Assembly: GCA_016182875.1 (NCBI GenBank)
Contig: JACPFQ010000004.1
Coordinates: forward strand, 99,203 to 163,202
DNA length: 64,000 bases
Reading direction: 5' to 3'
DNA from: Candidatus Doudnabacteria bacterium
Lineage (GTDB): Bacteria > Patescibacteriota > Doudnabacteria > UBA920 > O2-02-FULL-48-8
Shown here piece by piece: positions 3,573 to 62,285 of the stretch (position 1 is its first letter; each line of letters begins with the position of its first letter). Below the pieces are notes generated by a model. That model was not told the origin of the DNA, did not search any database, and saw nothing but the letters and a program-made list of their open reading frames with translations. Made by a program: the position numbers and the translations under genes.

Positions 3573-3604
3573 ATCGGGTCAAAATTTGGTAGAATAAATA
3601 GGCA

Positions 3605-10563: not shown

Positions 10564-10577
10564 AGTCGCGTAGTCCT

Positions 10578-17602: not shown

Positions 17603-17934
17603 AAATATGCTTGTTTAAAAAGATTCAACAACTCCTGCTCTAGATCCCTGTATCGTTTCCCGCCAGCTTCGTTCTTCACCGTAAGGAGGATGTCCGCTGG
17701 TTTAGTATTTGATAAATTGAGCTGGACAATCCGCTTAAGCCGCCGCTTAACCTGGTTGCGCTTGGTGACTTTGGGAAAAATTTTCTTTGAAACAATAAAA
17801 CCAAAACGCGGATTGTTTTGGTTGGGACGAGAGGTAAAACGCAATCTAAACGAATTTGAGTGAAAAGTCCTGCTGTGTCTGAATTGATTGAACTCCTGCT
17901 CGGTTTTAAGGGTCGTCAATTGGGACTTTCTCAT
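17587..17934 (-). CDS. rnpA: Ribonuclease P protein component
   Basis: Basic 115-aa protein with the RNR-like motif (KRNQVKRRLKRI); between rpmH and yidD. Confidence 0.85.
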   Translation of the reverse strand: MRKSQLTTLKTEQEFNQFRHSRTFHSNSFRLRFTSRPNQNNPRFGFIVSKKIFPKVTKRNQVKRRLKRIVQLNLSNTKPADILLTVKNEAGGKRYRDLEQELLNLFKQAYLWKKF

Positions 17935-18068
17935 TAAACTGTCAGTTTCCGCCTGCCCTTAGCGCGACGACGAGCCAAAACGTTGCGGCCGTTTCGGCTT
18001 TTCATCCTGCTGCGAAAGCCGTGAACTCTCTTTCTTCTTAATTTTTTAGGTCGATAGGTGGGCTGCAT
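17934..18068 (-). CDS. rpmH: 50S ribosomal protein L34 (not in the supplied ORF track; below its length cutoff)
   Basis: Hand translation gives [44 protein letters not shown] (44 aa); the stop TAA overlaps the rnpA ATG (TAATG). Confidence 0.85.
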
Positions 18069-18262
18069 AAGCTTTCTTACTATACCAACTTTGCCTTAGT
18101 TTGTCACGGGTATTAAACAGTAACAAAGTTTCAACCTCTATTCCACATCATATTAACAGTCATGCAAATTTTTGGCTAAAGTTAGCCAAAAATTTAGGAT
18201 TTACATGTTGATAACTTATCTGTTACAATACCGGAGTTAAAATCATTTTTGAAATCAAACTT
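18069..18262. other. Candidate oriC / dnaA promoter region (rpmH-dnaA intergenic)
   Basis: AT-rich; contains a near-DnaA-box TGTTGATAA (1 mismatch to TGTGGATAA) and TATTCCACA; conserved rpmH/dnaA divergent arrangement. Confidence 0.3.
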
Positions 18263-19597
18263 ATGACCAACCAACAGCTTTGGCAGGCAATTCTTGGCAA
18301 CTTGGAACTGACCCTCAGCAAGGCAAATTTTACGACCTGGTTTAAAAACACTTCGATCATCGAAAAAAGTGAGAATTCCATTGTAGTCGGAGTACCCAAT
18401 GGCTTCACCAAGGAGTGGCTGCAGAACAAATACCATCAGGAGATTCTGAAAGCCCTCAAAACAATTTCGCCGGAAATCAAGGAAATCAAATACCAAATAG
18501 TCAGCCCGACTTATACTCAACCGCAGATTGCGAAGGAAGTGGTCCGGCCGCAGCAAGTCAAAAGAGCTGATAATCAGAACTTGAACCCAAAATATACTTT
18601 TACCAGCTTCATTGTCGGGGCCAACAACCAATTGGCGCACGCGGCCAGCCTGGCGGTAAGCAAAAAACCGGGCCAGGTTTATAATCCGCTCTTCATCTAC
18701 GGCGGGGTGGGATTGGGAAAAACTCACCTCATGCAGGCCGTGGGCAGCGAAGTCCTCAAAAAATCCGCGAATGTCAAGGTTTTATATGTGACGTCCGAAA
18801 AATTTACCAATGAATTTGTCTCCGCAGTTTCTGCGGGAAAAACCGAGTCATTTAAATCTTTATACCGCAGCGTCGACGTTCTGCTGGTCGATGATATTCA
18901 ATTCTTGGCGGGAAGAGAAGGCACCCAGGAAGAATTTTTCCATACCTTCAATGCCCTGCATCAAAACAACAAGCAGGTCGTAATGACTTCCGACCGGCTG
19001 CCCAAAGAAATTCCTGCGATCGAAGAGCGCTTGGTTTCGCGCTTTGAATGGGGAATGATTGCCGACATTCAAGCGCCCGATTTGGAAACCCGCCTGGCGA
19101 TTCTTAAGACCAAAGCCCGGGAAAAAAATTACAACATCGAACCGGAGATTTTAACTTACATTGCGGAAACCATCCAAAGCAATATCAGGGAATTGGAAGG
19201 GGCCTTAAACCGGCTTATGGTCTACTGCCAGCTCAACAACACCCGCCCGACCATTGACCAGGTGAAGAATATCCTCGTCAACGTCATAACTCCCCCAAAA
19301 AGGCGTGGCGTCTCTGCCAAAAAAATCATTGAAGTCGTGGCTGACTTTTATAACGTTTCAATTGAGGACCTTCTCAAACAATCGAGAAAAAAAGAATACG
19401 TCAATCCGCGGCAAATCGCCATGTTCATCATCCGCCGGGAGCTAGAAACTTCCCTCCCATCGATCGGCGAGTTCTTTGGGGGCCGGGACCACACCACTGT
19501 AATCCATGCCATCGACAAAATCGATCGCCAAATCAAAGAACGCAACGGCTTAAAACAAGAGATAGATTTGATTAAGGATAGACTGTATATGCCGTGA
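18263..19597 (+). CDS. dnaA: Chromosomal replication initiator DnaA
   Basis: AAA+ Walker A (GGVGLGKTHL), DnaA signature, C-terminal DNA-binding domain. Confidence 0.95.
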   Translation: MTNQQLWQAILGNLELTLSKANFTTWFKNTSIIEKSENSIVVGVPNGFTKEWLQNKYHQEILKALKTISPEIKEIKYQIVSPTYTQPQIAKEVVRPQQVKRADNQNLNPKYTFTSFIVGANNQLAHAASLAVSKKPGQVYNPLFIYGGVGLGKTHLMQAVGSEVLKKSANVKVLYVTSEKFTNEFVSAVSAGKTESFKSLYRSVDVLLVDDIQFLAGREGTQEEFFHTFNALHQNNKQVVMTSDRLPKEIPAIEERLVSRFEWGMIADIQAPDLETRLAILKTKAREKNYNIEPEILTYIAETIQSNIRELEGALNRLMVYCQLNNTRPTIDQVKNILVNVITPPKRRGVSAKKIIEVVADFYNVSIEDLLKQSRKKEYVNPRQIAMFIIRRELETSLPSIGEFFGGRDHTTVIHAIDKIDRQIKERNGLKQEIDLIKDRLYMP

Positions 19598-19767
19598 GGG
19601 TAAACTGTTAATTAAAAATTACGGATTACGGGTTACGGATTTTTATACCGACGTTCCCCACAAGCTAAAAACAACAAGTTAAATAATCTAATTCGATAAT
19701 CCGCAATCCGTAATTAATAATTCCAACAAATACACAAACCCACAGTTTCTATTACCACTATTATTTT
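19598..19767. other. dnaA-dnaN intergenic region with inverted TTACGGAT-type repeats flanking an AT-rich core; alternative oriC candidate
   Basis: ttacggattacgggttacggatt ... aatccgcaatccgtaat (imperfect inverted repeats); TTCCCCACA and AACCCACAG as weak DnaA-box-like 9-mers. Confidence 0.3.
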
Positions 19768-20874
19768 TTGAAGACCATTATGAAAGTAGTATGCACCAAA
19801 GATAACTTAAGAAGAGGCCTGTTTGCCGTAAGCCGGGTGGTCGGGAGCGGAAACCCGTTGCAGGTTTTGAATAACATTTTGGTCAAAACCGACCAGGGGC
19901 GGGTCAAGCTATCTTCCACCAATCTTGAAATTGGAGTCAACACCTGGATTGGCGGAAAGATAGAAGAGGAGGGGGCGCTGACCGTGCCGGCCAGGCTGAT
20001 GAATGAATATATAAATAACCTGCCGGCTGACAAGGTTCTCATTACGGTTAAGGACACGGTTCTAAGCTTGGAGTCAGAGAATTATCACACGAATATCAAG
20101 GGGCTTTCGTCAGAAGATTTCCCCCTAATTCCACAGGTACTGGACGAGCCATACACCAAAGTTGACTCCGATGAGCTTAAATCAGCGCTTGCTGAAACAG
20201 TTTGGGCTGCGGCCAACAACGAGACCCAACCCGAGATTTCGGGGATATTTGTCGCTTTCGAGGATAACAAATTAAGGATTGCCGCCACTGACCGGTACCG
20301 CCTGGCAGAAAGAGTCGTGCCGCTTGCTGCTGCGGTCGCCACAAATAAAGAAGCTATAATTCCATCAAGGACAATCGGCGAGCTTTATAAAATACTTAGC
20401 CTGGGCAAGGGTGGGGTAGAAATTTACTTTTCGGAATCCCAGGTCTTGTTTAAGTTCGACGAGACCGAAATCATCTCACGCCTCATAGACGGCAACTATC
20501 CTGACTACCGCCAGATTATTCCGAAGACCTTTAAGACCGAAGCCGAGGTCGGGAAGTCAGAACTGCTTCACGCGCTCAAGGCAGCAAGCTTGTTTGCTCC
20601 TGACTCAAATAACGTCCAGGTGGAAGCGGGCAAGACCGAGCTGACAGTCGCCGCTTCGTCCGCCGCTGCCGGCGAAAACGTCACCAAGGTCGCAGCAGCA
20701 GTCAAGGGAGATAGCAACAGCGCAGTGTTCAACTTTCGATATCTCATCGATTGCCTCAACGCCTTGCCGGAAGAAAAAGTAATTCTTAAGATGATTAATG
20801 ACGCTTCGCCGGCCATGCTGCTGCCAGCCGGCCGCGATAATTATTTATACATCGTAATGCCAATTAAGCTGTAA
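19768..20874 (+). CDS. dnaN: DNA polymerase III beta sliding clamp
   Basis: MKVVCTKDNL... three-domain clamp architecture; 368 aa. Confidence 0.9.
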   Translation: MKTIMKVVCTKDNLRRGLFAVSRVVGSGNPLQVLNNILVKTDQGRVKLSSTNLEIGVNTWIGGKIEEEGALTVPARLMNEYINNLPADKVLITVKDTVLSLESENYHTNIKGLSSEDFPLIPQVLDEPYTKVDSDELKSALAETVWAAANNETQPEISGIFVAFEDNKLRIAATDRYRLAERVVPLAAAVATNKEAIIPSRTIGELYKILSLGKGGVEIYFSESQVLFKFDETEIISRLIDGNYPDYRQIIPKTFKTEAEVGKSELLHALKAASLFAPDSNNVQVEAGKTELTVAASSAAAGENVTKVAAAVKGDSNSAVFNFRYLIDCLNALPEEKVILKMINDASPAMLLPAGRDNYLYIVMPIKL

Positions 20875-22013
20875 TGAAGCTGGAAAGCATTGCTTTAGAA
20901 AATTTCCGCAACTACTCAAAAATCGAGGTCAATATAAATTCCGACCTCGTTTTGATTTTGGGGGCGAACGCCTCCGGCAAGACCAATTTTTTGGAAAGCA
21001 TTTATTTTTTGTCCCGTTTGAAGTCGTTCCGCAGCCCAGACCAGTTTCTTGTTAAAATCGGAGAGAACTATTTTAAGCTGGCGGCAAATGTCATTGCGAG
21101 GCCGGACTTGATCCGGCCGAAGCAATCTCATGGAGAGATCGCCGCGTCGTCCCGCCAAGGCGGGACTCCTCGCGATGACCAAGAAAAAGACCTAGAAGTT
21201 ATAGTCCAAGTCACCCCTATTTTAAAGCGCAGCTTTAAACTTAACGGCCAGAAAATCAAGCGCGGGCTTTGGCAAAGTTTTGCCGCGGTGCTGTTCATTC
21301 CCACTGACCTGAATTTGTTTTCTTTGGGTCCGTTATTGAGGCGAAGATACCTAGATGACACTTTATCCCAAGTCAGCAAAAATTATGCTTTTGATTTAGT
21401 TTCTTTGGACCATGTACTTGGTCAGCGCAAGGCCTTGCTGGAAAAAATAGCACTTCAGCAAGCCCAGCGTGAGGAGCTAAGCTTCTGGAACGAGCAGCTG
21501 ATTACTTTGACTTTAAGCATCGGCCAGGAGCGGAAATGTTTTTTGGATTTTTTAAACGAGCGGTTGAACTCGGTCTATTCGCAGTTGTCCGGTTTCAAAA
21601 ATAAATTCGCGGTTGAATACAAAACTGATGCTCAGGGCGACCTGCATAAACTGATCAAAGAGCATGAGGGGGCGGAGGTTAGGTCCGGCCAAAACCTCAT
21701 AGGACCGCATCGGGAAGACTTTGTCCTTAACAAAGACGGATTGTTGAATGTTTATAATTCATCCCGCGGCGAGCTCCGCTCCCAAATCTTGGCGATTAAG
21801 TTTTTACAAGCTGAGTACCTGAACAGCCACGACTTCAAGCCAATTATCTTTTTGGACGATGTTTTTTCCGAGCTCGACGAGGAGCGCCGGATTAAATTAC
21901 TGGAGAATCTTTCTGGCCACCAGATTTTTATCACGACCACCGAAGAGCACCACTTACCGGAAATAAAACAAGCGCAAAAGTTAAAAGTCGAGAATGGACA
22001 GTTCCTCCCCTGA
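20874..22013 (+). CDS. recF: DNA replication/repair protein RecF
   Basis: Walker A (LGANASGKTNFLESI) and a signature/Walker B region near the C-terminus. Confidence 0.9.
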   Translation: MKLESIALENFRNYSKIEVNINSDLVLILGANASGKTNFLESIYFLSRLKSFRSPDQFLVKIGENYFKLAANVIARPDLIRPKQSHGEIAASSRQGGTPRDDQEKDLEVIVQVTPILKRSFKLNGQKIKRGLWQSFAAVLFIPTDLNLFSLGPLLRRRYLDDTLSQVSKNYAFDLVSLDHVLGQRKALLEKIALQQAQREELSFWNEQLITLTLSIGQERKCFLDFLNERLNSVYSQLSGFKNKFAVEYKTDAQGDLHKLIKEHEGAEVRSGQNLIGPHREDFVLNKDGLLNVYNSSRGELRSQILAIKFLQAEYLNSHDFKPIIFLDDVFSELDEERRIKLLENLSGHQIFITTTEEHHLPEIKQAQKLKVENGQFLP

Positions 22014-22046
22014 TACCCCCTCTAACTCCCCCTTCCAGGGGGAGAA
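22013..22046 (+). terminator. recF terminator hairpin that is also a minimal copy of the palindromic-element terminal repeats (TAACTCCCCC-ttcca-GGGGGAGaaTTA)
   Basis: CCCCC-TTCCA-GGGGG stem-loop followed by aattatttttct; its ends match those of the elements inside uvrB and valS. Confidence 0.55.
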
Positions 22047-22141
22047 TTATTTTTCTAAAAATTAGACAAATCAAAAGAGCGAGGCCGACCCATACGGGGT
22101 CAAACCTCGCCCTCTCGTCCGGTCGAATGACCGGAACGTGT

Positions 22142-23884
22142 CTATCTGTCTTCCTCCTCCCTTTCGTTATCGAGCTCCATGTGAAGGCCTTGTGAGACCC
22201 TCAACATGAATTCGCGGCGCTCGTTCGGCTTGCCGCCGAAGAACTTAAACCTTCTCTCGACCTTCTTGGGTTCGTGGGCCACCACGTGATCCGCGGTCAT
22301 CATATTGATGACCTTCTGTTCCGCCTCAAGCCCGTCGACATGCTGAGCGAGCGCGGTTACCGCACTGCGGGCTTCACCCGTGACCCGCTCGACGGCAGCG
22401 ATGCGGTCCATCATGGACTGCCGCAGCTCGGCACCGTACTTGGTAACGACTTCCGTGGCCTGCGCCCGCGCCGCTGTAGTGACCCGCGCCTCGAGCCCGT
22501 CGAGCCCACTGTACTGGATCCTCAGGGCAGCGAGCTGCTGGCCCTGCGCCTGAACTTGCCGACGGAGCGCGGTGATGTCAGCGCTTGGCTGCGGCTGGGT
22601 GACCTGCTTCTGCACCGCCTCGATGCGCTGCTGCAGTCGGTAACCCATGGCGTTGGTCTGGTTATCCATGACTGTCACGTATTTGTCGGAGACGATTGTT
22701 CGGCCGTCCTGGCAGGTGACACCGACCTTGGTAGCTACCTTCCGAGCGTTGACCGGGTCGATGTTGACCGTGCCCACCACTTGCGTGGGTGAAGCGCTCG
22801 TCACGGTCATGCTGACACCGCGCGTGATATTCACCGCCGTCGGGTTTCCGGTGCAGAGGTTGCTGCCCGACAGGGTCAGCATCTGCGGTACCGGGTGGTC
22901 CACGACGATGGTGTCCGGTGATATCGAGGTGATCTGTCCGGCGGCCTGTGCGAACGCTGCGTTCGCGTAGCCGCCAAACAGCAGCGCCAGGATGATCACG
23001 GGAACCACAGGAGCCGGAGCCGCGGGAACGGCGGGCTGAGCCGAGACTTCCGCCGAGTTCGGTCCCTCGCCAGACCCGTAGTACGCGCTCACGACGTAGA
23101 AGTATTGGGTGCCGTTCGTGAGCCCCGCTGCGTCGGTGTAGGTCGTCGCATTGGCCGTGCCGACGATTGTGTACGGGCCGCCGGCAGTCGTGGCGCGTTT
23201 GACCGTGTAGAACACAGCGCCTGTGATTGCCGCCCAGTTGAGGACGACCTGAGCGTTCCCTGGCGTTGCCGCAAGCCCTGTGGGAGCAGCAGGTCTGTGT
23301 GCTTCCTGAGCGCGCCGACGGACTTCGGCGTCGCGGTCCTCCGGTTGTGCAGGACCGCGCCGCCGTAAGAACCAGACGGCAATGATGAGCACGAGCAGTC
23401 CCACACCAGCCCAGACGAACGGGGCCAAGTTGATGGCCGCTGGCGGACAGCCGGTGGTCAGAACGGGCGTTCCCTGCGGGGTGTCCTTGCACTGGTCGAC
23501 GTTGTCCGCGACCTTGTCGCCGTCCGAGTCAGTGGCGGCCGGCGGCGGTTCCTGCGCCTTGTCTGCCGCCTGCTGCTGTTCTTGCGAACAGCCGTTGCGG
23601 AAGATGGGCACGCCTTGCGGGGTGTTGGCGCACTGGTCGTCGCTGTTCGGGATGCCGTCGCGGTCTGCATCCGCCACCGGGGTTGCCGGTTGCGGAGTTG
23701 GCGTTGGCGCGGGAGCCGCGGGCTGGCCCTGAGTGGCCGGTGGTGCCTGCGGCGCGGGCGCGGGTTGCGGAGTCGGCGGTTGCGCAGTCGCAGCCTCGGG
23801 CTCCTGTGGCACGACCGGAATCTGCGCGAACGCGCTGGCGCTGAGCGCCAGCATTGCGAGCACGAAAACGAACATTCTTATCAT
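22142..23884 (-). CDS. High-GC secreted/membrane surface protein. Order: signal peptide, Pro-rich linker, two TSP3-like Ca-binding repeats, TM helix, FN3-like domain, second signal-peptide-like segment, Cys-containing beta domain, long coiled coil
   Basis: I prefer ATG at 23884 (MIRMFVFVLAMLALSASAFAQ) with SD AGGAGGG 3 nt upstream over the track start at 24106. Repeats DADRDGIPNSDDQC and DSDGDKVADNVDQC. FN3-like segment NAQVVLNWAAITGAVFYTVKR...GTQYFYVVSAYY. Confidence 0.55.
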   Translation of the reverse strand: MIRMFVFVLAMLALSASAFAQIPVVPQEPEAATAQPPTPQPAPAPQAPPATQGQPAAPAPTPTPQPATPVADADRDGIPNSDDQCANTPQGVPIFRNGCSQEQQQAADKAQEPPPAATDSDGDKVADNVDQCKDTPQGTPVLTTGCPPAAINLAPFVWAGVGLLVLIIAVWFLRRRGPAQPEDRDAEVRRRAQEAHRPAAPTGLAATPGNAQVVLNWAAITGAVFYTVKRATTAGGPYTIVGTANATTYTDAAGLTNGTQYFYVVSAYYGSGEGPNSAEVSAQPAVPAAPAPVVPVIILALLFGGYANAAFAQAAGQITSISPDTIVVDHPVPQMLTLSGSNLCTGNPTAVNITRGVSMTVTSASPTQVVGTVNIDPVNARKVATKVGVTCQDGRTIVSDKYVTVMDNQTNAMGYRLQQRIEAVQKQVTQPQPSADITALRRQVQAQGQQLAALRIQYSGLDGLEARVTTAARAQATEVVTKYGAELRQSMMDRIAAVERVTGEARSAVTALAQHVDGLEAEQKVINMMTADHVVAHEPKKVERRFKFFGGKPNERREFMLRVSQGLHMELDNEREEEDR

Positions 23885-24133
23885 CACACCCTCCTGTGAG
23901 ATGTGAAAGTTGGCCTCGCGGCCAGTTGAAACGAAACGCTCTGACGGCGTTTGGCCGCGAGCCAGTGCGTGAACTCTAGTAGCACTGCTTTTATGTCTGA
24001 AATTTATCCTGATGTAAATCAGGATCAGGCACAAAAGTAATCCTACTAAAATGGGGAGGAGCGAGGCAGTCTTGGTAGACCAGCCTCGCCCCACTCCTTC
24101 TTGCATCTCAGCGCTTGCGCGCTGAGTTTCCTC

Positions 24134-25960
24134 CTATCTGTTGTCTTCCTCCGGTCCGCCGTTGGGTGGCGCACCGTTCCGGGTCTCGCACGGGGTGGCC
24201 AGACCGAGCGCCTCGGCGACTGCTTGCGACGCCGTCTTGCGCTGGTTGGGCTGTCCGCGTCTGAGGAACCTGCCGCCAACGCGGTCAGGCTCGTCGTACA
24301 CGACATGCTGCATCGCAATGCAGGTGCCGGTCTCGACGTTGCCCATCCTGCCTTGCAGGTTGTTGACGTACCCGGCCTGGGTTGTCAGGGTCTTCGCGAG
24401 CTCCCCGGCGTAGCTAAGCGTCTGGTCAGCAACGCTGCGCGTCGCCTTGCCTGCCTCTTCGGCTGCGGCAATGCGCGACACCATGCGCTCCTCGAGGGTC
24501 TGGAGGTCGCTGAGGACATCCGCACGCCGCGCGAAGGGAGCCCATGATGCCTGGAGAAGCTCGCCAGCTTTCGCGTGCGTCGGCTGGGCGGAGTAGTCCA
24601 GGTAGCGCTTGTTCCCCTCTTCCCGCCCGTAGACCTGCTGGAACTTCTCCTGCAGGTAGTGTGAGAAACGCGGGTCGCGTCCGAACCGCTCGGCCGTGAT
24701 GTCGAGCACGGTCGCCGATTCCTGGCTGATGATGCGGACGACCGAGTTGCCCGACGCGATGTCGCCTGCGTCGGTGTTCACCACGAACGCCGTGGTCCCC
24801 GGCATGGCAGTCGCGTCTGCCTGGAGCTTGCTGATGATGGTGTTGCCCTTCATCACAATCTCCGTAGTGGTGGCCACACCGGTGCCGGCGTTGATGCCCG
24901 TGACCTTGCCGAGCTTGGCGTTGCGCGGGCAGGCCATGGTGATGGTCACGTCCGCGGCGTTGCCGCCCTGCACCAGGTATCCGTTCTGCACACTGACAGA
25001 ACGGACGGTGCACGTCGGAACTGCAGGGGCCGCGGGAGCGGCGGGCTGACCCTGAGCAGGCACCTGTGCGGCTGCCGGCTGCGGCGCTGCCGGCGGGGCC
25101 GGGGCAGCCGCACCGGGAGCGGCCGGCGCCGTGGTGACGGGTGGGGTCGGCTGCTGGGCGAGGGCGCTGTTGGCGCCGAGCCCGAGCAGGATGGCGATGA
25201 CGATGCTTCTCATGACAGTTCCTCCGAGTTTCCGGTTGATGTTGATGCCGAACCCGATGACGAGTCCGACGAGAATCACGAACCCGACGGCCCCGCCGAT
25301 GACGATGTACCGCAGCTTCTGATCGGTCCGCCGCGTGTCCTGGCGGGCGAGTAGCGCGTTGTTGGACGCCTTGATCGAGTACTGCCGGTCCATCCACGAG
25401 TTGTCCGCCGACGAGGCGATTGCCTTCTCGATTCGTCCGATGAGCGAGGCTTCGACGTCGTTCAGGCGGTGCTCGACGTCAGTAGGCGACGCGTTGTACG
25501 GCGCGACCTTGGCGATGTAGGTTCGGGTCGCTTCGAGAGGCGGTTGCGACGAGTCGGTGACCTTGACCGTGACCGTGTAGTCATCGCCTGGGATTTCTTC
25601 GCCACGCGATGAATACAGGTAGGCCTGACTCTTGCTCGGCAACCAGACATCGAGAATGTCTCCGTTCTTGATCTCGTCGACGATCTCCCACTTGTAGGGC
25701 TCGGTCCCGCCGCGCGCCGCCAGGTTGAACTCCTTGTAGCGGCCGGATTCGAACGCGATGGTCGTGGGTTCGACGATTGTCAACGAACCGGTTGCTGTCG
25801 CGGGCGGCTGCTGGGTCGAACCCGTCGCGGGCGGCGCCTGCTGAGTCGAAGTACCGGGCTGGCGAATCGTCGCGGTCTGCGCGCCGAGCGGCACCAGGTT
25901 CAAGAGGAACCCGAGCAGCAAAATCGCTGCGCAGATGAGGTACTGAGTCAACTTCTTCAT
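24134..25960 (-). CDS. High-GC surface protein, paralogous architecture to 22142..23884. Order: signal peptide, Thr/Pro-rich linker, Ig-like domain, TM helix, second signal peptide (with internal RBS + ATG at 25213), Pro-rich linker, Cys-containing beta domain, coiled coil
   Basis: SD AAGGGAGAG before ATG at 25960. GGTEPYKWEIV...DDYTVTVKVTD resembles bacterial putative-Ig domains. Internal GGAGGA-6nt-ATG (M250, MRSIVIAILLGLGANSALAQQ) is in frame. Confidence 0.55.
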   Translation of the reverse strand: MKKLTQYLICAAILLLGFLLNLVPLGAQTATIRQPGTSTQQAPPATGSTQQPPATATGSLTIVEPTTIAFESGRYKEFNLAARGGTEPYKWEIVDEIKNGDILDVWLPSKSQAYLYSSRGEEIPGDDYTVTVKVTDSSQPPLEATRTYIAKVAPYNASPTDVEHRLNDVEASLIGRIEKAIASSADNSWMDRQYSIKASNNALLARQDTRRTDQKLRYIVIGGAVGFVILVGLVIGFGININRKLGGTVMRSIVIAILLGLGANSALAQQPTPPVTTAPAAPGAAAPAPPAAPQPAAAQVPAQGQPAAPAAPAVPTCTVRSVSVQNGYLVQGGNAADVTITMACPRNAKLGKVTGINAGTGVATTTEIVMKGNTIISKLQADATAMPGTTAFVVNTDAGDIASGNSVVRIISQESATVLDITAERFGRDPRFSHYLQEKFQQVYGREEGNKRYLDYSAQPTHAKAGELLQASWAPFARRADVLSDLQTLEERMVSRIAAAEEAGKATRSVADQTLSYAGELAKTLTTQAGYVNNLQGRMGNVETGTCIAMQHVVYDEPDRVGGRFLRRGQPNQRKTASQAVAEALGLATPCETRNGAPPNGGPEEDNR

Positions 25961-25989
25961 GACTTGCTCTCCCTTTTGCTAACGAGCGG

Positions 25990-26226
25990 TTATGGTTCAA
26001 CGACAGTCACGTTGACTGCCATCAGTACTGCGTCGAGGTCGAACGTGGCCTGCTTGCCGCGGATTCGTCCGCGCGGCACGTGGTCGTCCCGAATCTCGAA
26101 CTTGTCTCCGACGTGGTCGGGGCCCGTGAGGACTCTCACCTTCCAGACCATCCTGCTAGGGTTGGTTGGGGAAGGATTGAAGCCCACGACATAGCCGGTA
26201 TACGCCGGTGACCCTCTGATCGTCAA
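25990..26226 (-). CDS. Small hypothetical protein (78 aa, TTG start) leading the high-GC minus-strand operon
   Basis: SD-like AGAGAGG upstream of TTG; same high G+C; 30 nt upstream of the next gene. Confidence 0.35.
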   Translation of the reverse strand: MTIRGSPAYTGYVVGFNPSPTNPSRMVWKVRVLTGPDHVGDKFEIRDDHVPRGRIRGKQATFDLDAVLMAVNVTVVEP

Positions 26227-26551
26227 AACGCACCTCTCTTTCTGAACAAATGCTGGTTGCGCCGCCGATACTTCCTAATTTTTAAGGCTTAAGAAACACG
26301 GGCGGCGCAACCAAAACTGAAACAAAATACACTATGGGATTTTAAAGAACGAACCGAATATGATAGCAAATTTTGGCACTTTTGTCAACCCCGACGCGCA
26401 AGCGGTCGGGGCTCCGACCGTAGCGTCGGAGTGCTCATGGTATTTTAGGCTAATTTTAGCCAAAAGCTGGCGCTAGGCTTGATTTTTTGCTTTAATACTA
26501 GTACAATTTAGCGTTCGTAAACCGCACTTTTAATTTTCCCAGGAGGGAGAA

Positions 26552-28138
26552 ATGATGTTTGCACAGATTTTTGTCGTCGTGGCGATTCTGGCTTCGGCCG
26601 GCGTCGCTTCCGCGCAAACGGTCTTTACTCCTTCCCTAAGAATTCCTGGGATTGGAGTAGAGCGAAAGAACATCAGCGGCGCGGTCCTGGACGATCGCAT
26701 CCGCAAGATAATTCTTTCACGGCAGTTCTGGCTCTTGCGGCAGGAATGCGCCAAGGATGCACCCAAGCGGCTGTTCGACAACTATTGGCGAATCATTGAG
26801 CCGGTGGCGGCGATTGAGCCCAGGCTTGATCCGTACATCATCGGAGCGCTGATTACTCTCGAAAGCTGCGTCGTTGAGAAAGCCGACAACGGGTTTGGTC
26901 CAGTTGGACTTTGCCAGATCGATATCGCGTCGGGCAAGGACCTCGGCATGAAGGTTCATGTTGAGCGGCGGTTCCGGTTGGTGCCGAGAAAAAATAGCCG
27001 CGGACAGATCCTCAAGGACAGGCGTGGAAGAGCGCTCGCTCGGCGCGTGTACTACTGGTATACCTATCCTGACGACGAGCGATGGGATCCAGCGAAGTGC
27101 ATCATGGGCATGCGCAATCGTCTGCTGCGCAGCTACAACGCCTACGGTTCGATGGATGCAACGCTCGCCGAGTACCACATGGGGCCAACGCGCATGAATC
27201 GTCTACTCTCGCTCTATACGGGTCAAAACGTGGTCAGGAATCCGACCAAAAAGGGCGAGGTCGCGGCCAAAGAAGTCATCGCGAAGCGGCAATTGCGCTA
27301 CGCGAAGATCTTCTTCGACAACACTCCGAGCTGGCGGCGCAGCGTCTGGCTTTACCTCAAGCGACTGCCTGACGACTCGGAAACGTACTACTTCAAAGAA
27401 GCCATGTGGGAAGGACTGCTTCGGTTTTACCATGACCCGCGGTACGGCGGCGGACCCGCGGCGTACGAACGACTGCAAGCCCGATACAGCGGGGCCTCTA
27501 GCCCAATGTGGTCGTTCTTCACGGAGGAGGAGCGTCAGCAGTATATGATCATGACCGTTGAGGCACTGGCCAAGGCGTACGATCCGCCCAGGCCTGGCGA
27601 GGGCGCGCGGCTCGTCCCGTTGCCTCAAGACCCGGCGTTCTTTGGGTTCAGGCCGAGACTTGAGGGGTCATCGCCGATTGGGGCGAAAGCGCTGAAACCG
27701 CAAGACAGACCATACTACATCGGGTCTGAAGCTTCAACGCTCGGCGCGCTCGTCTACATTTCTTACGAGCTTAGGCGGCTGACGGGGGCTGGGTTTCGGA
27801 TTTTGGAGACCAACTCGCTCGTCCGAGACAACGATTATCAGTTGCGTTTAAGAACTGATAACGTGAATGCGCGCACCAGCCTGCCCACGCACGTGATGGC
27901 CAAGGCCTTCGATCTTCCCTACAACTGGATGAGTCCGCAACTGCGGGAGAACTTGGAGTTCCTCCTGCAGGACCTGGCGTATGACGGCAAGCTGACATTC
28001 AGCCCCGAGTCAGGGAGCCAGCATACCGACCATGTCGTTCCTCATCCCGACGCGGAAGAGTTCTTCGACAAGGTCTACGCTGGAGCCGAACGTCAGCTGG
28101 CGGCGCGAAATGCCGCTCGTCGTGCAAACACCCAATAA
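26552..28138 (+). CDS. Secreted putative peptidoglycan hydrolase: signal peptide + lytic-transglycosylase (SLT)-like domain + C-terminal domain with an H-x6-D ... HxxH metal-site-like pattern (peptidase-like)
   Basis: Signal peptide MMFAQIFVVVAILASAGVASAQ. ITLESCVV...GFGPVGLCQI matches the SLT ES...GLMQ pattern. C-terminal SLPTHVMAKAFD and HTDHVVPH. SD AGGAGGGAG before the ATG. Confidence 0.5.
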   Translation: MMFAQIFVVVAILASAGVASAQTVFTPSLRIPGIGVERKNISGAVLDDRIRKIILSRQFWLLRQECAKDAPKRLFDNYWRIIEPVAAIEPRLDPYIIGALITLESCVVEKADNGFGPVGLCQIDIASGKDLGMKVHVERRFRLVPRKNSRGQILKDRRGRALARRVYYWYTYPDDERWDPAKCIMGMRNRLLRSYNAYGSMDATLAEYHMGPTRMNRLLSLYTGQNVVRNPTKKGEVAAKEVIAKRQLRYAKIFFDNTPSWRRSVWLYLKRLPDDSETYYFKEAMWEGLLRFYHDPRYGGGPAAYERLQARYSGASSPMWSFFTEEERQQYMIMTVEALAKAYDPPRPGEGARLVPLPQDPAFFGFRPRLEGSSPIGAKALKPQDRPYYIGSEASTLGALVYISYELRRLTGAGFRILETNSLVRDNDYQLRLRTDNVNARTSLPTHVMAKAFDLPYNWMSPQLRENLEFLLQDLAYDGKLTFSPESGSQHTDHVVPHPDAEEFFDKVYAGAERQLAARNAARRANTQ

Positions 28139-28162
28139 AAAAACCGCCCCGGAGGAGGCGGT
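28133..28162 (-). terminator. Rho-independent terminator for the minus-strand membrane-protein gene (hairpin CCGCC-ccggagga-GGCGG followed by a T-run on the minus strand)
   Basis: aaaaaaaaccgccccggaggaggcgg on the plus strand. Confidence 0.55.
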
Positions 28163-28215
28163 GAGTGCGGGGCCCGGGAATTGAAACGTTTAATGTTTCT
28201 GCCCGGGTCCTGTTT

Positions 28216-33320: not shown

Positions 33321-33398
33321 AAGCTATTTTAGCTCCGACGCTCGACCCTGTCGAGGTCGGAGTCCCGCACCGAAGCGTCGGGACAGTTTGACGCGACC
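33321..33398. repeat. GC-rich nested hairpins (CTCCGAC...GTCGGAG family) in the tsaE / DHH divergent intergenic region
   Basis: CTCCGAC-GCTCGAC-cct-GTCGAG-GTCGGAG followed by GTCCCG-caccgaagcgt-CGGGAC. Confidence 0.5.
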
Positions 33399-45307: not shown

Positions 45308-45410
45308 TGTTAATTCCTCCCCTAGAATAGGGGAGGTTAGGAGGGGTAGAGTACGAGCTTGAACCGTACCTCCCCTAGCCCCTCCTATTCTAGGAGGGGA
45401 ATTAAAATAT
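45308..45410. repeat. ~100-bp palindromic element (terminal inverted repeats TTAATTCCTCCCCTAGAATAGG / CCTATTCTAGGAGGGGAATTAA) filling the ruvA-femAB intergenic region
   Basis: Near-perfect 22-bp terminal inverted repeats plus internal sub-palindromes (GTACG...CGTAC). Confidence 0.5.
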
Positions 45411-46989: not shown

Positions 46990-47019
46990 CAGAAAAAGGT
47001 TATACTCAGATATAGCATA

Positions 47020-47043
47020 AATCGCCCTTCGGGCGGTTTTTTG
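47020..47043 (+). terminator. Rho-independent terminator (CGCCC-ttcg-GGGCG + T-run)
   Basis: aaatcgcccttcgggcggttttttgg. Confidence 0.7.
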
Positions 47044-50002: not shown

Positions 50003-53000
50003 TTGTCTATGCAAAAAGAGAATGTTTTTATGTCCCCAAAAGCGAAAAGCCCCAATTTAAGCCTTGATTTTAGCAGGAAGCAGACCAAGGTCAGCAAACG
50101 GACTTCATTCACCCCTTTTCACGAAGTCATGGAGATGCCCAACCTTATCGAAGTCCAACTGGCTTCTTATCAGTGGTTTTTGCAACAAGGGCTCGCCGAG
50201 CTCTTTTCCGAAATCAACCCAATTAAAGATTTCACCGGTAAGAATTTTGAACTAGTCTTTGGCAATTATTTTTTGGATAAGCCCAAGTATGACGAAAAAA
50301 CCGCCAAGGAGCGTAACACTACTTTCGAAGCCCCTTTGTACGTTTCAGCCAAACTGATAAACAAGGCGACCGGAAAAACCAAGACTCAAGATGTTTATAT
50401 CGGCGACTTTCCCCTCATGACGCCTCGCGGGACTTTTGTGATTAATGGTGTGGAACGAGTAGTCGTTTCTCAGCTAGTGAAATCCCCAGGCGTATTTTTT
50501 ATGGCCGAAACCGCGCGCGGCCGCAACTGGTATGGAGCAAAAATTATTCCCAACCGCGGCGCTTGGCTGGAAATTGAAACCGACATCAACGGCGTCATCA
50601 GCGTAAAAATCGACCGCAAGCGAAGAATTCCGGTAACCGCCCTGTTTCGAGTTTTTGGTTTTACCTCCGACGAAGAAATTCTTTCCGCTTTTACGGAAGT
50701 CGATACCAACCCCGATCTCCGCTACATTCAAAATACGCTTGATAAAGACCCGTCCAAGAACGCCGACGAGGGCTTTAAGGAAGTTTATAAGCGCATCCGT
50801 CCGGGGGATTTGGCGACCGCCGATAATGCCCGCTCCCTGATTGAGGCCATGTTTTTTCATGCCGATCGTTATGACCTTTCGGAGGTCGGCCGGTATAAAT
50901 TAAATCAGCGCCTCAACATCAAGGACCGGCAGGACCGGATTTTGACCAAAGAAGATTTGGCGCAAATCATCAGTGAGGTCGTCCGGCTCAACAACAGCCA
51001 AGGCCCTTGGGACGACATCGACCACCTTTCCAACCGCAGGGTTCGCGCGGTCGGGGAACTGATTCAGGGCAAATTCCGCGTTGGGCTGGCCCGCATGGCG
51101 CGCATCGTCAAAGACCGCATGAGTTTGGCTGACGTCGAAACCGTCACTCCGGCCCAGCTCATCCACGTTCGCCCGATTGTCGCAGTCATCCAAGAGTTTT
51201 TTTCATCTTCCCAGCTGTCCCAGTTTATGGATCAGACCAACCCGCTGGCTGAATTGGAGCATAAGCGAAGACTTAGCGCCATGGGCCCTGGGGGACTGTC
51301 CCGCGAGCGGGCCGGTTTTGAAGTCCGGGACGTGCACCGCAGTCACTACGGCCGGCTTTGCCCCATCACCACACCAGAGGGTCCGAACATAGGCTTGGTG
51401 GCGCATTTGGCTTCCTATGCCCGCTTAAACGACTATGGATTTATCGAAACGCCTTACCGCAAAGTGGTGAAAGATGAATCAGGGCGGCGGCGGGTGACCA
51501 ACCAAATCGAATATCTTGACGCTTACGAAGAAGAGCATGTTATCATCGCTCAGGCCACCACAGCGTTCGATAAAGACGGCTACTTTTTGGAAGAGCGAGC
51601 CTCAGTCCGGGTGCACGCCGAACCTTCCATTGCCGCAACAAAGGACATTGATTACATGGAGGTTTCTCCAAAGCAGATTATTTCCGTGACCACTTCTTTA
51701 ATTCCTTTTTTGGAGCACGATGACGCAAACCGCGCGTTGATGGGTTCCAACATGCAGCGGCAGGCCGTGTCCTGCATTAAGCCTGAATCTCCGGTGGTCG
51801 GCACGGGAGTCGAGGCCAAAGCCGCTTATGATTCCGGCCAGGTCGCGATTGCGGAGACTGGCGGCGTTGTAACTTCGGTCAGCGGCGAAAAAATCGTGAT
51901 TGCGGACAATAACAACAAGAAGAAAGAATATTTGCTTCAGAAATTCATCCGGTCCAACACTTCCACGTCGATTAACCAGCATCCGATTGTCCGCAAGGGC
52001 CAGATTGTAAAGGCAGGAGAGGTTCTGGCCGACGGGGCGGCGATTGAAAACGGAGAGTTGGCTTTGGGCCAAAATTTGCTGGTCGGTTTTATGTCCTGGG
52101 AGGGCGGCAACTACGAAGATGCGATTTTGATTTCGTCCCGGGTGGTGGAAGAGGACCGCTATTCTTCCATTCACATTGAAGATTTTAAAGTTGACGTCCG
52201 CGATACCAAATTGGGGCCGGAAATTATCACCCGCGACATTCCCAACGTTGGGGAAGAAAAGCTGAAGGACCTGGACGAAAATGGAATAATCAGGATTGGC
52301 GCCCAGGTCAAAGCCGGCGACATTTTGGTCGGGAAAATCACTCCCAAAGGGGAAACCGATTTAACGGCGGAAGAAAAGTTGCTGCGAGTCATTTTCGGCG
52401 AAAAATCCCGCGACGTCAAAGACACTTCCCTAACCCTGCCTCATGGCGAATACGGCAAAGTCGTCCATATCCGGGAATTTTCGAGAGAGCAGGGGGACAA
52501 GCTTCCTTCGGGGGTCATTCGGTCAATCCAGGTTTCGATCGCGGTTTTGCGCAAAATCCAGGTTGGCGACAAGATGGCCGGCCGCCACGGCAACAAAGGA
52601 GTCATTTCGCAGGTAATTCCAGTGGAAGACATGCCGTTCGATGCCTCCGGCACGCCGGTAGACATCATTCTCAACCCCCTGGGCGTTGCAAGCCGCATGA
52701 ACATTGGGCAGATTCTTGAAACTCATTTAGGCTTGGCCGCGAAAAAGTTGGGATACAAAGTCGCTTCTCCGGCCCTGGACGGGGTGCCCGAAAATGTGAT
52801 TAAGCAAGAGCTTAAGAAAGCCGGCTTTCCTGAAGACGGAAAGTTGGTGCTGTATGACGGCAAGAGCGGCGAACCGTTTGCCGAGAAAGTTACAGTCGGG
52901 ATTATTTACATGCTGAAGCTTCACCATTTGGTGGACGACAAGATGCACGCGCGCTCCACCGGCCCTTATTCCTTGATTACCCAGCAGCCCTTGGGCGGCA

Positions 53001-53368
53001 AGGCTCAATTTGGCGGCCAGCGATTTGGAGAAATGGAAGTCTGGGCCTTGGAAGGGTACGGCGCGGCCCACACCCTCCAGGAAATGTTGACCATTAAATC
53101 CGACGATGTGGTCGGCAGGGCTAAAACCTATGAATCGATAGTTAAGGGCGAGCCGATTAAAAAGCCGAATGTCCCCGAATCGTTCCGCGTCTTGGTCAAA
53201 GAACTGCAGTCGCTGTGTTTGAATGTCGAACTGATTGGGGAAAAAGTAGCTGAAGCCGCTGAAGATAAAGCTGGAGAAATCAGGGAGCTCGTTACCAGCG
53301 ACAGGCCGGAGCCGGAGAAAATTGCGGTAGCTGAAGACAAAGGCAAGAAGAGAAAAAACAAGAGATAA
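50003..53368 (+). CDS. rpoB: DNA-directed RNA polymerase subunit beta
   Basis: Conserved beta-subunit blocks throughout; 1121 aa; the start may be at 50030 (MSPKAK). Confidence 0.95.
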
Positions 53369-53370
53369 CT

Positions 53371-57261
<3,891 letters not shown>

Positions 57262-57267
57262 GTGCTC

Positions 57268-57396
57268 GGGCTAGGTCGCAAATCAGAGCCGACGGGTCCT
57301 GCCGCGATTTACCCCACCAGTGCTCACTGTCGTTGCGCGCTGTCGGGGTCCCCAAATCGCGTCACCCGTCGGCAGCCAGTCTTTGCGACTAGCCCT
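57268..57396. repeat. GC-rich nested-palindrome element (~130 bp) between rpoC and the next gene
   Basis: GGGCTAGGTCGCAAA ... TTTGCGACTAGCCC encloses GCCGACGGGT ... ACCCGTCGGC, which encloses GCGATTT ... AAATCGC; G+C well above the flanking genes. Confidence 0.5.
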
Positions 57397-57413
57397 CGCT
57401 GAGGAAAAATAAT

Positions 57414-57851
57414 ATGAAATCCTGGATTAAGACAATAGTCATATTAGTGGCAGTTGTAGTAGGCGTTGCTGGCTACCTGCTGCTGGCCAACCGCACCCAA
57501 GACAACGGACAAACACCCTCAGAGCAGACTCAAGCCGAAGTAGTAATCGAAACGCCTCAGCGCGGCGATTTGGTCAAAAGTCCCCTTGCTGTCAAAGGCA
57601 AAGCCAAGGGCATTTGGTTTTTTGAAGCCAATCTTCCGGTAACGCTTAAGGACCAGAATGGGAAAATTCTGGCGCAAAAGGGATTTCAGGCCAAAGGTGA
57701 GTGGATGACCGAAGATTATGTTGAGTTTGAAGACACTTTGACCTTTGCCGCTCCCACGACCGAGTTCGGAGTGTTGGTTATCGAGAATGATAATCCTTCT
57801 GGGCTTAAAGAATTTGAAAAATCATTCGCCGTGCCTGTGAGGTTTAAGTGA
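57414..57851 (+). CDS. Membrane-anchored Gmad2-like Ig-domain protein
   Basis: N-terminal TM helix, then a beta-rich domain (LVKSPLAVKGKAKGIWFFEANLPVTLKDQNGKIL) resembling Gmad2 Ig-like domains. Confidence 0.5.
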   Translation: MKSWIKTIVILVAVVVGVAGYLLLANRTQDNGQTPSEQTQAEVVIETPQRGDLVKSPLAVKGKAKGIWFFEANLPVTLKDQNGKILAQKGFQAKGEWMTEDYVEFEDTLTFAAPTTEFGVLVIENDNPSGLKEFEKSFAVPVRFK

Positions 57852-57885
57852 CTGTTGACATTTAAATACAGTAGACATACAATCA

Positions 57886-58155
57886 TTGTATATGAAAACG
57901 CGGGCTTTTAATATTGCCTTGCCTCAAGAACTGGTGCAAAAGATAGATGAGGCCGCTCGAAAAGAATATCGCAATCGCAGCGAATTTATCCGCGAGGCGG
58001 TTTTGTTTCGTTTACAAGATTTGAAAAGTTGGGAAAGAATTTTTCAAGCGGGGAAACAGGCTGGAAAAAAGCTGAGGATTAAAAGCGAAGCGGATGTTGA
58101 CAAGATAGTATACGCATATCGCCATGGCCGAAAATCCAAAAAAGGTCGTAATTGA
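57886..58155 (+). CDS. Ribbon-helix-helix (CopG-like) antitoxin
   Basis: FNIALPQELVQKIDEAARKEYRNRSEFIREAV RHH pattern; overlaps the downstream PIN gene by 32 nt. Confidence 0.6.
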   Translation: MYMKTRAFNIALPQELVQKIDEAARKEYRNRSEFIREAVLFRLQDLKSWERIFQAGKQAGKKLRIKSEADVDKIVYAYRHGRKSKKGRN

Positions 58156-58552
58156 TACCAATGTTCTGGTGTCGGCGATCGTCTATGGCGGCAATCCAAG
58201 GAAGATTTTATCCCAGCTTTCAGCGAGAGAAATTTCGGCCGTAACCTCTGCCATTCTTTTGGCTGAATTGACCGATGTTTTGGCAAAGAAATTCAACTTT
58301 AACCGTGATGACATCCTGCTTATCGAAAGGCAAATCAAAAGACATTTTATTTTAGTTTATCCGCAGAAAACTGTTGATGTTTTGCCGGATAATAACCCAG
58401 ACAATCGTGTTTTAGAAGTTGCCTCCGAAGGAGATTGTGACTATATTATTACCGGAGACAAGGAACTGTTGCGGCTGAAGTTTTGGAATAGTATTGAAAT
58501 TTTAACTGCGTCAGAATTCTATGAAAAATTGTACATGGAGAAAAATAATTGA
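58124..58552 (+). CDS. vapC: PIN-domain toxin (VapC-like)
   Basis: VVIDTNVLVSAI...D...ITGD; PIN acidic residues. Confidence 0.75.
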   Translation: MAENPKKVVIDTNVLVSAIVYGGNPRKILSQLSAREISAVTSAILLAELTDVLAKKFNFNRDDILLIERQIKRHFILVYPQKTVDVLPDNNPDNRVLEVASEGDCDYIITGDKELLRLKFWNSIEILTASEFYEKLYMEKNN

Positions 58553-58714
58553 TTTCAAAGAGATTAAACAAGGCGGCGTTGATATAAGAACCTGCTTGTC
58601 TAACAAATGGTGTAATTACACCAAAAGTTAGAATAGGCCCTTATGCGCCGCATCCAGACTTTCCAGATGAAGAAAAATAAAAGAGACGCGTTAGCGGCTC
58701 TTTTTAAATTTTAT

Positions 58715-61931: not shown

Positions 61932-62285
61932 CTAATTCTTTTTATTTTGTATCAGCTTTGAGAGCATTTTTTGAACTTCAGTCAATAAACTTATCGCTTT
62001 TGTGTAGTCGATTTTGGGATACCTGTCGCGGCAAATGATTAATTGTGTTTCTAACTCGCAACTGGAAGCATAAGCGATTTCTAAAAAGCGAATAAATTCC
62101 ATTTTTCTATTTCGAGACCAGCCCTCAGCGATGTTCGAGGGAATTGAAATAGCACAGCGAAGCATTTGAGCTAAAAGAATAAACTGCTCTTGTTTAGGCA
62201 GTAAGTCCCCAATATCATAAATTAACTTTACCAGCTCAATCGATTTTCGCCAAACAATCAAATCTTTATACCCTGCGTAAGCCAT
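61932..62285 (-). CDS. Four-helix-bundle protein (23S rRNA intervening-sequence protein family)
   Basis: KDLIVWRKSIELVKLIY...IPSNIAEGWSR, typical of TIGR02436. Confidence 0.75.
   Translation of the reverse strand: MAYAGYKDLIVWRKSIELVKLIYDIGDLLPKQEQFILLAQMLRCAISIPSNIAEGWSRNRKMEFIRFLEIAYASSCELETQLIICRDRYPKIDYTKAISLLTEVQKMLSKLIQNKKN

Follow-up and report, generated by a model that had tools for sequence, protein, structure and literature searches.

Several families of extragenic palindromes are known from other bacteria. Enterobacteria carry ERIC elements of about 127 bp, Neisseria carries Correia elements, which duplicate TA on insertion, and pneumococci carry RUP and BOX elements. Where ERIC/MITE-like palindromes lie in co-transcribed intergenic regions, they change the stability of the mRNA or become targets of cleavage by RNase III or RNase E. 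Hairpins are also formed by integron attC sites, which range from 57 to 141 nt and combine a bulged base with an unpaired internal spacer and a terminal structure that varies, and by rRNA intervening sequences, which are extended hairpins in helix loops that are removed by RNase III. REP units possess an unpaired GTAG or CGTC tag at one end, stems of 5–13 bp and loops of 2–20 nt, and REP-type elements are reported to sit within small target palindromes, which results in nested palindromes (PMC3733652). REPINs are hairpin-forming extragenic elements of 71–110 bp (PMC3116915). For Patescibacteria and the CPR lineage, a literature search returned no described miniature mobile palindrome family.

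Here we analysed a nested palindrome between two genes of a Candidatus Doudnabacteria genome, using a window of 64 kb (the whole stretch of DNA under study). The palindrome, which forms a hairpin directly downstream of rpoC, is, in the sequences searched, a labile single-copy orphan of a known general kind and is specific to its lineage.

Architecture of the hairpin downstream of rpoC

The hairpin is located between rpoC and a gene for a Gmad2-like protein (gmad2). The features of the locus, and the methods by which they were recognized, are as follows:

50003–53368: rpoB, directly upstream of rpoC (Pfam)
53371–57261, + strand: rpoC, RNA polymerase beta' subunit, 1296 aa (open reading frame; Pfam Rpb1 domains 1–5)
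57259–57261, + strand: rpoC stop codon TAA (sequence)
57268–57395, no strand: whole nested hairpin, 128 nt, GC 0.648 (repeat search, folding)
57268–57282: outer 5' arm GGGCTAGGTCGCAAA, G57275 bulged (repeat search, fold)
57288–57297: middle 5' arm GCCGACGGGT (repeat search, 100% complementary)
57301–57310: inner 5' arm G.CGCGATTT (repeat search, fold)
57311–57353: 43-nt core between the inner arms, GC 0.70 (fold, composition)
57354–57363: inner 3' arm AAATCGCG.C (repeat search, fold)
57364–57373: middle 3' arm ACCCGTCGGC (repeat search)
57382–57395: outer 3' arm TTTGCGACTAGCCC (repeat search)
57401–57404, + strand: Shine-Dalgarno-like motif GAGG, 9 nt 5' of the gmad2 ATG (sequence)
57414–57851, + strand: Gmad2-like (immunoglobulin-like domain) gene, 145 aa (Pfam PF10648)

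The hairpin begins 6 nt past the rpoC stop codon, and 18 nt separate its end from the gmad2 start codon (ATG, 57414); the GAGG motif stays unpaired in the predicted fold. In a preliminary description, the element had been presented as a triply nested perfect palindrome at 57268–57396, enclosing a G/C-rich core of about 45 nt. Our repeat search recovered all three repeats and the same start, while the end lies at 57395, the core measures 43 nt and the outer repeat is not perfect but split into 7 + 8 bp by one bulged G (G57275), a site that the preliminary description had indicated with a dash. The middle arms, GCCGACGGGT and ACCCGTCGGC, constitute perfect 10-bp terminal inverted repeats of an inner element, and the inner repeat (GCGATTT/AAATCGC) extends to 11 nt at 91% in the repeat search. 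Furthermore, the core folds on into a fourth tier absent from the earlier list, in which ACCCC (57311–57315) pairs with GGGGT (57345–57349), and into an apical CAGTGC/GCGCTG stem. The hairpin comprises 46 bp, 45 Watson-Crick and one G-U, with an equal count on both strands. The sole G-U pair belongs to the apical stem; the four main tiers, with 39 pairs, contain none. Internal loops are asymmetric, and their two sides, 5 versus 8 nt in the largest (5 x 8 nt), are unrelated. Since the pairing is purely strand-symmetric and nearly all Watson-Crick, while the loops are asymmetric and unrelated, the hairpin suggests a palindrome at the level of DNA, not an old or long-selected RNA fold.

The stability of the hairpin is far beyond chance. 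On the + strand, the minimum free energy of the RNA was about -69 to -73 kcal/mol (-73 kcal/mol for 57255–57415, 161 nt), and on the - strand it was -78 kcal/mol for the same segment, with z = -5.5 in both cases and none of 200 dinucleotide shuffles folding as well. With DNA parameters we obtained -42 kcal/mol and z = -7.9 for the hairpin. Several further long intergenic hairpins in the window reach z <= -5. The suggestion that the element is more than a simple terminator was borne out structurally: 46 bp are formed within 128 nt, and a T-run follows on neither strand (the + strand continues TCGCTGAGGAAAAATAAT, the - strand CGAGCACTTATGTCC). A terminator scan returned no site at the hairpin, while ordinary hairpin plus T-run terminators exist elsewhere in the window, for example at 2465–2498, 7328–7360 and 47019–47043.

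The G+C content of the hairpin (0.648) is above that of the flanking genes, as had been proposed: the final 600 nt of rpoC have 0.52 and gmad2 has 0.475; the window as a whole reaches 0.49. The further statement that this is the only strongly GC-rich non-coding element besides hairpins with the motif CTCCGAC was only roughly right, since the spacers 10564–10766 (GC 0.60) and 28139–28215 (GC 0.58, with hairpins) are GC-rich as well. A resemblance between GTCGGGG/CCGAC in the hairpin and the CTCCGAC hairpins occurred at chance-level count and was dismissed, as was an 8-mer (GGGCTAGG) common to the hairpin and a palindrome at 45310.

The Gmad2-like protein displays a hydrophobic segment at its N-terminus and is 100% identical to an NCBI protein of Candidatus Doudnabacteria, from a MAG in which the longest recorded contig measures 327 kb. 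For the exact RpoC protein, an exact-protein look-up found no record. A promoter scan revealed no sigma-70-like promoter between rpoC and gmad2; a match of 11/12 was found at 57855–57883, ahead of the next unit, a RHH-PIN toxin-antitoxin pair. Among 57 predicted ORFs of the window (at least 70 aa, taken from a greedy longest-ORF map), no Pfam match to a transposase, RAYT, integrase or recombinase was detected. The window also carries housekeeping genes, including those of the origin region (rnpA-yidC / dnaA-dnaN-recF).

The rpoC–gmad2 spacer in relatives

Closer relatives were reached by protein searches and exact-protein look-ups, and their relatedness is given as identity of the RpoC C-terminus. 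Scans of genome and metagenome contigs with the RpoC C-terminus yielded 53–60% identity at best among the matches listed. At the 3' end of rpoC, the relatives showed the following arrangements:

L178, 87%: rpoC and gmad2 overlap as in L173 (ATGA), spacer 0
L177, 87%: 55-nt spacer, 45% GC
L173 (GCA_016198045.1), 86%: rpoC stop overlaps gmad2 start (ATGA), spacer 0
L168, 83%: rpoC and gmad2 overlap, spacer 0
L164, 80%: AT-rich spacer of 124 nt, unrelated, containing a 16-bp inverted repeat of its own
L169, 78%; L083, 76%; L084, 60%; and L003 and L018, which are more distant: ordinary terminator (hairpin and T-run) directly after rpoC

The comparison of the rpoC 3' region that had been proposed as a check thus found the hairpin missing in all relatives at 76–87% identity, so it is not a conserved feature of this region. 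The conserved neighbour 3' of rpoC in the clade is gmad2, and relatives without the hairpin keep both this gene and the RHH-PIN pair in synteny. Our comparison showed that the overlap of rpoC and gmad2 (ATGA) is the ancestral arrangement, kept in several relatives.

The spacer of L177, the closest relative to have one, bears directly on the nested architecture. Its Gmad2 protein has the same type of N-terminus as the one in the window and is 69% identical over the full length, and the spacer reads TAA GCCGCTGAGGTGCTGCAAAAATTCTTTTTTGTGCGACACCCTCGCTTGAAAAAAT ATG. Homology is clear between its right part, TTTTGTGCGACACCCTCGCTTGAAAAAATATG, and TCTTTGCGACTAGCCCTCGCTGAGGAAAAATAATATG of the window, which comprises the 3' outer arm and its flank: the outer 3' arm TTTGCGACTAGCCC corresponds to TTTGTGCGACACCC of L177, and the common flank continues CCCTCGCT..GAAAAA..ATATG. 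For the left part, CCGCTGAGGTGCTGCAAAAA, a manual alignment with the 5' outer arm GGGCTAGGTCGCAAA matched at about 12/17 positions, which is short and tentative. In L177, these arms fold only weakly, into a hairpin whose loop has 3 nt (-13.5 kcal/mol, z = -1.4). What is missing in L177 is the interior:

57283–57381: block missing in L177, 99 nt, GC 0.667, including the unpaired flanks TCAGA and AGCCAGTC (comparison with L177)

In the window, this inner block is bounded by the perfect 10-bp repeats. Since L177 comprises the outer arms and the flank without the interior, the triple nesting reads as a composite. Tentatively, and with confidence a little short of even, we interpret the nested palindrome as a lineage-specific composite in which a GC-rich palindromic indel lies in an older, weak hairpin within the rpoBC–gmad2 mRNA. 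The arms of an older, locus-specific hairpin would now represent the outermost stem, and about 99 nt of palindromic DNA with 67% GC would have been inserted into the loop of that hairpin in the lineage of the window. Such a piece would most simply be a MITE/REPIN-like or a foreign palindromic fragment. If the three relatives with overlapping genes serve as outgroups, the spacer most simply grew from 0 to 55 to 152 nt, the last step presumably being the insertion in the window's lineage. The opposite direction could apply as well: L177 could have deleted the interior of an ancestral hairpin, because palindromes are prone to deletion.

No clear target-site duplication was found at the borders of the block. 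The only candidate is a 2-nt TC (57283–84 and 57380–81), which flanks a 95-nt version of the insert at chance level and is not adjacent to the inverted repeats. Taken together, the L177 indel and the GC excess make inserted palindromic DNA the best reading of the origin, which is kin to the selfish-repeat idea of the preliminary description. If the composite interpretation holds, the locus offers an example of how spacers are built: two genes of an essential operon that overlap in relatives would have been parted in two steps, through a short, weak hairpin and a subsequent palindromic block rich in GC, leaving a very stable stem-loop where relatives show ordinary terminators or nothing. A striking nested palindrome can thus be a historical composite and not a designed RNA.

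Further copies and likeness to known families

We searched for RNA families and for further copies of the hairpin by several approaches. At the gathering threshold, Rfam recognized two tRNAs in the window and nothing else; at E <= 10 the segment 57150–57520 gave no relevant family but only chance-level matches, located outside the hairpin or marginal to it. BLASTN-short searches with the hairpin against the window and 164 related or otherwise fetched loci (about 0.9 Mb) returned nothing but the element itself and identical Logan contigs, and its inner 99 nt shared only 9–10-mers with six further loci. Likewise, a single-sequence covariance model, applied to both strands of the window and 99 loci (100 sources, 0.57 Mb), detected only the hairpin itself, and searching the window for the hairpin arms with 2–3 mismatches gave chance-level matches. 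Distant BLASTN searches of PLSDB plasmids and INPHARED phages revealed no match to the hairpin. In IMG/VR viral contigs, two more specific hairpin patterns were without match, while a looser 20-base gapped pattern matched three times; these matches had nothing else in common with the hairpin, and their number is, by our estimate, about the chance expectation of a few. A concatenated six-frame translation of the hairpin, compared with 5.8 billion predicted proteins, retrieved nothing at E <= 10, which argues against a widespread high-copy family.

The three identities that had been suggested for the element gained no positive support. Against a structured RNA stand the empty Rfam result, the lack of conservation in the nearest relatives and Watson-Crick stems of equal stability on both strands. 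For a selfish repeat, a second copy was sought in the window, related loci, plasmids, phages, viral contigs and predicted proteins, and was not found. An attachment site is not supported either, with no attC core sites present and no recombinase among the 57 ORFs scanned. Since neither conservation nor, in the sequences searched, another copy was found, the reading as a special element fails by the criterion that the preliminary description itself had named.

Compared with described families, the hairpin shows a mixture of likeness and difference. Like REPINs and REP-BIMEs, it is a GC-rich extragenic palindrome (about 70–110 nt in those families) that forms a hairpin in single-stranded DNA or mRNA, its place is a presumably transcribed spacer flanked by genes on the same strand, and its presence varies among relatives; REPs, too, can nest in small target palindromes. 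However, GTAG and CTAC are absent from 57268–57395 and CGTC occurs inside paired arms only, and the stems enclose 43–99 nt instead of short loops. REPs and REPINs exist in tens to thousands of extragenic copies per genome; we detected no second copy in the 64-kb window, and RAYT, an IS200/IS605-type Y1 transposase, had no Pfam match in its 57 ORFs. ERIC (IRU) elements are close in size (128 versus about 127 bp) and are likewise imperfect palindromes over the whole length, situated, as the hairpin presumably is, in co-transcribed intergenic regions. In contrast to these and to MITE-like elements, the hairpin is, so far, present in a single copy, without sequence similarity to them and without target-site duplication, and its host belongs to the Patescibacteria. 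As in MITEs, there are terminal inverted repeats (GCCGACGGGT/ACCCGTCGGC) and a filled site that can be compared with an empty one (L177), whereas a target-site duplication is missing and dispersed copies were found neither in the window nor in the fetched loci, plasmids, phages or viral contigs.

The likeness to other hairpins is more limited. With intrinsic terminators the element shares a GC-rich hairpin right after the stop codon, at the same place as the terminators of relatives, but it differs by the absence of a U/T tract on either strand and by a multi-tier stem (128 nt, 46 bp) where terminators have a short one closed by a small loop. It is an imperfect hairpin in the size range of attC sites, with a bulge and an unpaired spacer, yet neither strand contains R''/R' cores (RYYYAAC / GTTRRRY), and the window holds no integrase and no cassette array. 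6S RNA is a rod of about 150–200 nt with a large central bubble, which mimics an open promoter; the hairpin measures 128 nt, its largest loop is 5 x 8 nt, and it has no Rfam match. By analogy, rRNA intervening sequences are similar as sporadic stem-loops of about 100 nt that occupy the loop of an older helix, which they lengthen coaxially, but the hairpin lies outside rRNA, and processing is known for the rRNA case alone. Two further links were tried and rejected. The Avd-like 23S-IVS protein (61932–62285), which might have pointed to a DGR, is encoded 4.5 kb off, beyond leuS, and no reverse transcriptase was seen; for a TIGR-Tas array, the hairpin forms no array and there is no Tas gene. From this comparison, the hairpin would seem to work like an intercistronic palindrome of the REPIN/ERIC type, although it can be placed in none of those families.

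Possible role and rival explanations

Since the spacer lacks a promoter and the genes were ancestrally coupled, the hairpin is probably transcribed inside a rpoB-rpoC-gmad2 mRNA, where it would form a stem-loop of about -70 kcal/mol. Such a stem-loop could block 3'->5' exonucleases or, alternatively, might serve as a site of processing by a double-strand-specific RNase or of partial termination. Complete termination at the hairpin would silence gmad2, as this gene has no promoter of its own. Either way, the upstream rpoBC message would be stabilised, and the expression of gmad2 would be uncoupled or lowered. REP, ERIC and Correia-type elements act in this manner on mRNA in other bacteria. In our view, the effect of the hairpin, if there is any, is probably passive or mildly regulatory and confined to minor 3'-end handling or decoupling of the genes. 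Terminators in relatives do the same job at the same position. The hairpin is not a conserved RNA gene.

Other explanations differ mainly in where the palindromic block came from. It might belong to an active or recently active multi-copy mobile palindrome (MITE, REPIN or ERIC-like) with other copies beyond the 64-kb window. The L177 indel, the elevated GC and the terminal inverted repeats, perfect over 10 bp, would fit this, and a second palindrome, at 45310–45405, coincides exactly with a boundary upstream of which sister metagenome contigs have another gene, which associates long palindromes with structural variation in the population. We nevertheless consider a multi-copy family unlikely: no second copy was found anywhere searched (the window, and with it 64 kb of the source genome, related loci, plasmids, phages and viral contigs), the six-frame peptide query against 5.8 billion proteins was empty at E <= 10, and there is neither a GTAG/CGTC end tag nor a target-site duplication nor a nearby transposase. 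A narrower version, namely that a palindrome of 86–99 nt is one copy of an undescribed miniature mobile family in Patescibacteria (Candidatus Doudnabacteria) that targets hairpin loops, appears quite doubtful to us. If it were true, this family, together with palindromes such as 45310–45405, would drive the gain of spacers between formerly overlapping genes and would mark structural-variation breakpoints in reduced genomes; further genomic copies, if found, would reveal a miniature mobile-element family in a CPR lineage. Alternatively, the hairpin may have grown in place by local inverted duplication or template switching and been selected as a terminator without U-tract or as an mRNA-stabilising stem-loop. 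Its position equals that of the relatives' terminators, a weak hairpin is already there in L177, other long 3'-end hairpins exist in the genome, and perfect stems beside unrelated loops suggest maintained pairing. Against this stand the 99-nt difference, which is a single block of 67% GC in a context of 45–49% GC, the lack of similarity to neighbouring sequence that might have served as template, and the missing T-run in an organism that uses canonical terminators, so that we would give growth in place only a minor share of our confidence.

Explanations at the level of function or of data quality fared worse. A novel structured ncRNA or cis-regulatory RNA, such as a 6S-like element that binds RNA polymerase or another protein-binding element, could draw on the very stable, non-random fold, on its neighbourhood to RNA polymerase genes and on internal loops as possible protein-binding sites. 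It is nonetheless very unlikely given an Rfam search without match at E <= 10, the absence of the hairpin from all relatives at 76–87% RpoC C-terminal identity, no strand preference, no G-U among the 39 main-tier pairs, no large central bubble as typical of 6S RNA and no promoter or terminator of its own. Similarly, we regard it as highly improbable that the hairpin is a DNA-level site, be it an attC-like remnant, a cruciform or a single-stranded hairpin recognized by a recombinase or transposase. While the strong ssDNA hairpin (-42 kcal/mol, z = -7.9), the bulged base and unpaired spacer, which recall attC architecture, and the nearby toxin-antitoxin pair are in line with such a site, its ends lack RYYYAAC/GTTRRRY core sites and the scan of 57 ORFs turned up neither an integrase nor a recombinase. 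Moreover, since relatives without the hairpin show the same synteny of gmad2 and the RHH-PIN pair, these genes are not cassettes delimited by the hairpin; the attC reading is already weakly refuted.

Finally, it is extremely improbable that the hairpin arose as an artefact of assembly (a fold-back chimera) or that the palindrome is due to chance. The concern arises because Logan contigs of two samples begin exactly at the hairpin centre, 57326, and independent confirmation covers the right half only; that half was, however, confirmed at 100% identity by these contigs. Fold-back artefacts yield perfect palindromes, whereas the arms observed here contain asymmetric, unrelated loops and enclose a 43-nt non-palindromic core. 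A chance palindrome is at odds with the shuffles, none of which (0/200) was as stable. An invertible or polymorphic core was also considered for the break at 57326 and rejected, as inversion predicts a break at about 57344 and the 45310 hairpin breaks centrally too: this unrelated palindrome (45310–45405) likewise has a Logan contig that begins at its centre, 45359. Central breaks in two unrelated hairpins thus suggest that strong hairpins generally affect short-read assembly in this way.

The rpoC 3' region in the window and in relatives

Past the rpoC TAA the same frame stays open for 46 codons, across the whole hairpin that follows rpoC, until a TGA (window 57259-57401). This open frame is probably a product of chance in GC-rich sequence. 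The position of the rpoC stop is conserved in relatives.

We compared the spacer between rpoC and gmad2 with the corresponding loci. At L164 (619-720), a relative with 80% identity in the RpoC C-terminus, the AT-rich spacer is of unrelated sequence and carries its own 16-bp inverted repeat (TCCCGTTAGAAATTTC / GAAATTTCTAAACGGGA, about 72 nt enclosed), and the gmad2 start codon adjoins the 3' arm of this repeat. L003, the locus of a more distant Patescibacteria MAG, displays a canonical terminator after rpoC and then a GC-rich cluster of three hairpins (3708-3860), surrounded by a closing stem (TTGCGAGG...CTCGCAATGACGAAG).

Beyond gmad2, we found the following features:

57855-57883: strong promoter of the toxin-antitoxin pair
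57886-58552: RHH (CopG/HicB-like) and PIN toxin-antitoxin pair, 3' of gmad2
58553-58714: 79-nt imperfect hairpin GGCGGCG...CGCCGC, then a canonical terminator, after the pair

The RHH-PIN pair is kept after gmad2 in L173, a relative with 86% RpoC C-terminal identity, and is absent from the contig of protein P0004.

Contig breaks and the palindrome between ruvA and the FemAB-like gene

The interval between ruvA and a FemAB-like gene contains a near-palindrome of 96 nt (window 45310-45405) that is far more stable than shuffled sequence (z = -13, where z is folding stability relative to shuffled sequence). The first base of this palindrome is the exact start of L172, one of the Logan contigs assembled from short reads. 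In L170, a Logan contig from another sample, a different upstream gene, absent from the window, is joined to the hairpin at exactly 45310. Given the start of L172, that of L171 at the centre of the hairpin and the junction in L170 at 45310, the palindrome marks a boundary of structural variation or of a repeat within the population.

Short-read Logan contigs also break at the exact centres of hairpins, at 57326 in the rpoC hairpin (L001 and L002) and at 45359 in the 45310-45405 hairpin (L171). The perfect arms of these two hairpins are nowhere near 31 nt long. The breaks at both centres look systematic, as an effect that stable hairpins have on assembly or sequencing.

Further GC-rich hairpins and the origin region

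Structured elements elsewhere in the window comprise:

3573-3680: ACGTAAC / ACGTGATAC motifs, repeated and arranged as inverted copies (z = -3.3), in the spacer of two divergent genes, one with an S1 domain and one with a metallo-beta-lactamase fold
17587-22013: chromosomal origin region, where the - strand genes rnpA-yidD-yidC-jag are followed by the + strand genes dnaA-dnaN-recF
26389-26431 and 33331-33390: small GC-rich hairpins arranged in tandem, one set per interval, each set upstream of a + strand gene

The stems in both tandem sets follow CYCCGAC...GTCGGRG (for example CCCCGACGCGCAAGCGGTCGGGG, then CTCCGACCGTAGCGTCGGAG), and the sets look REP/BIME-like. We saw no convincing relation between them and the rpoC hairpin.

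The block at 22000-28200 has a GC content of 59-66% versus about 47% in its surroundings and may be foreign DNA. It is bordered by GC-rich hairpins (22014-22141 and 28139-28215) and encodes an SLT-domain protein and two large proteins of 654 and 608 aa with little or no Pfam signal (a weak fn3 match in the former).

Within the origin region, the dnaA-dnaN spacer (19598-19767) contains a 33-nt inverted repeat built from TTACGGATT-type units (z = -5.4), which may be an oriC-related structure. The motifs in the divergent spacer at 3573-3680 may form an operator array.
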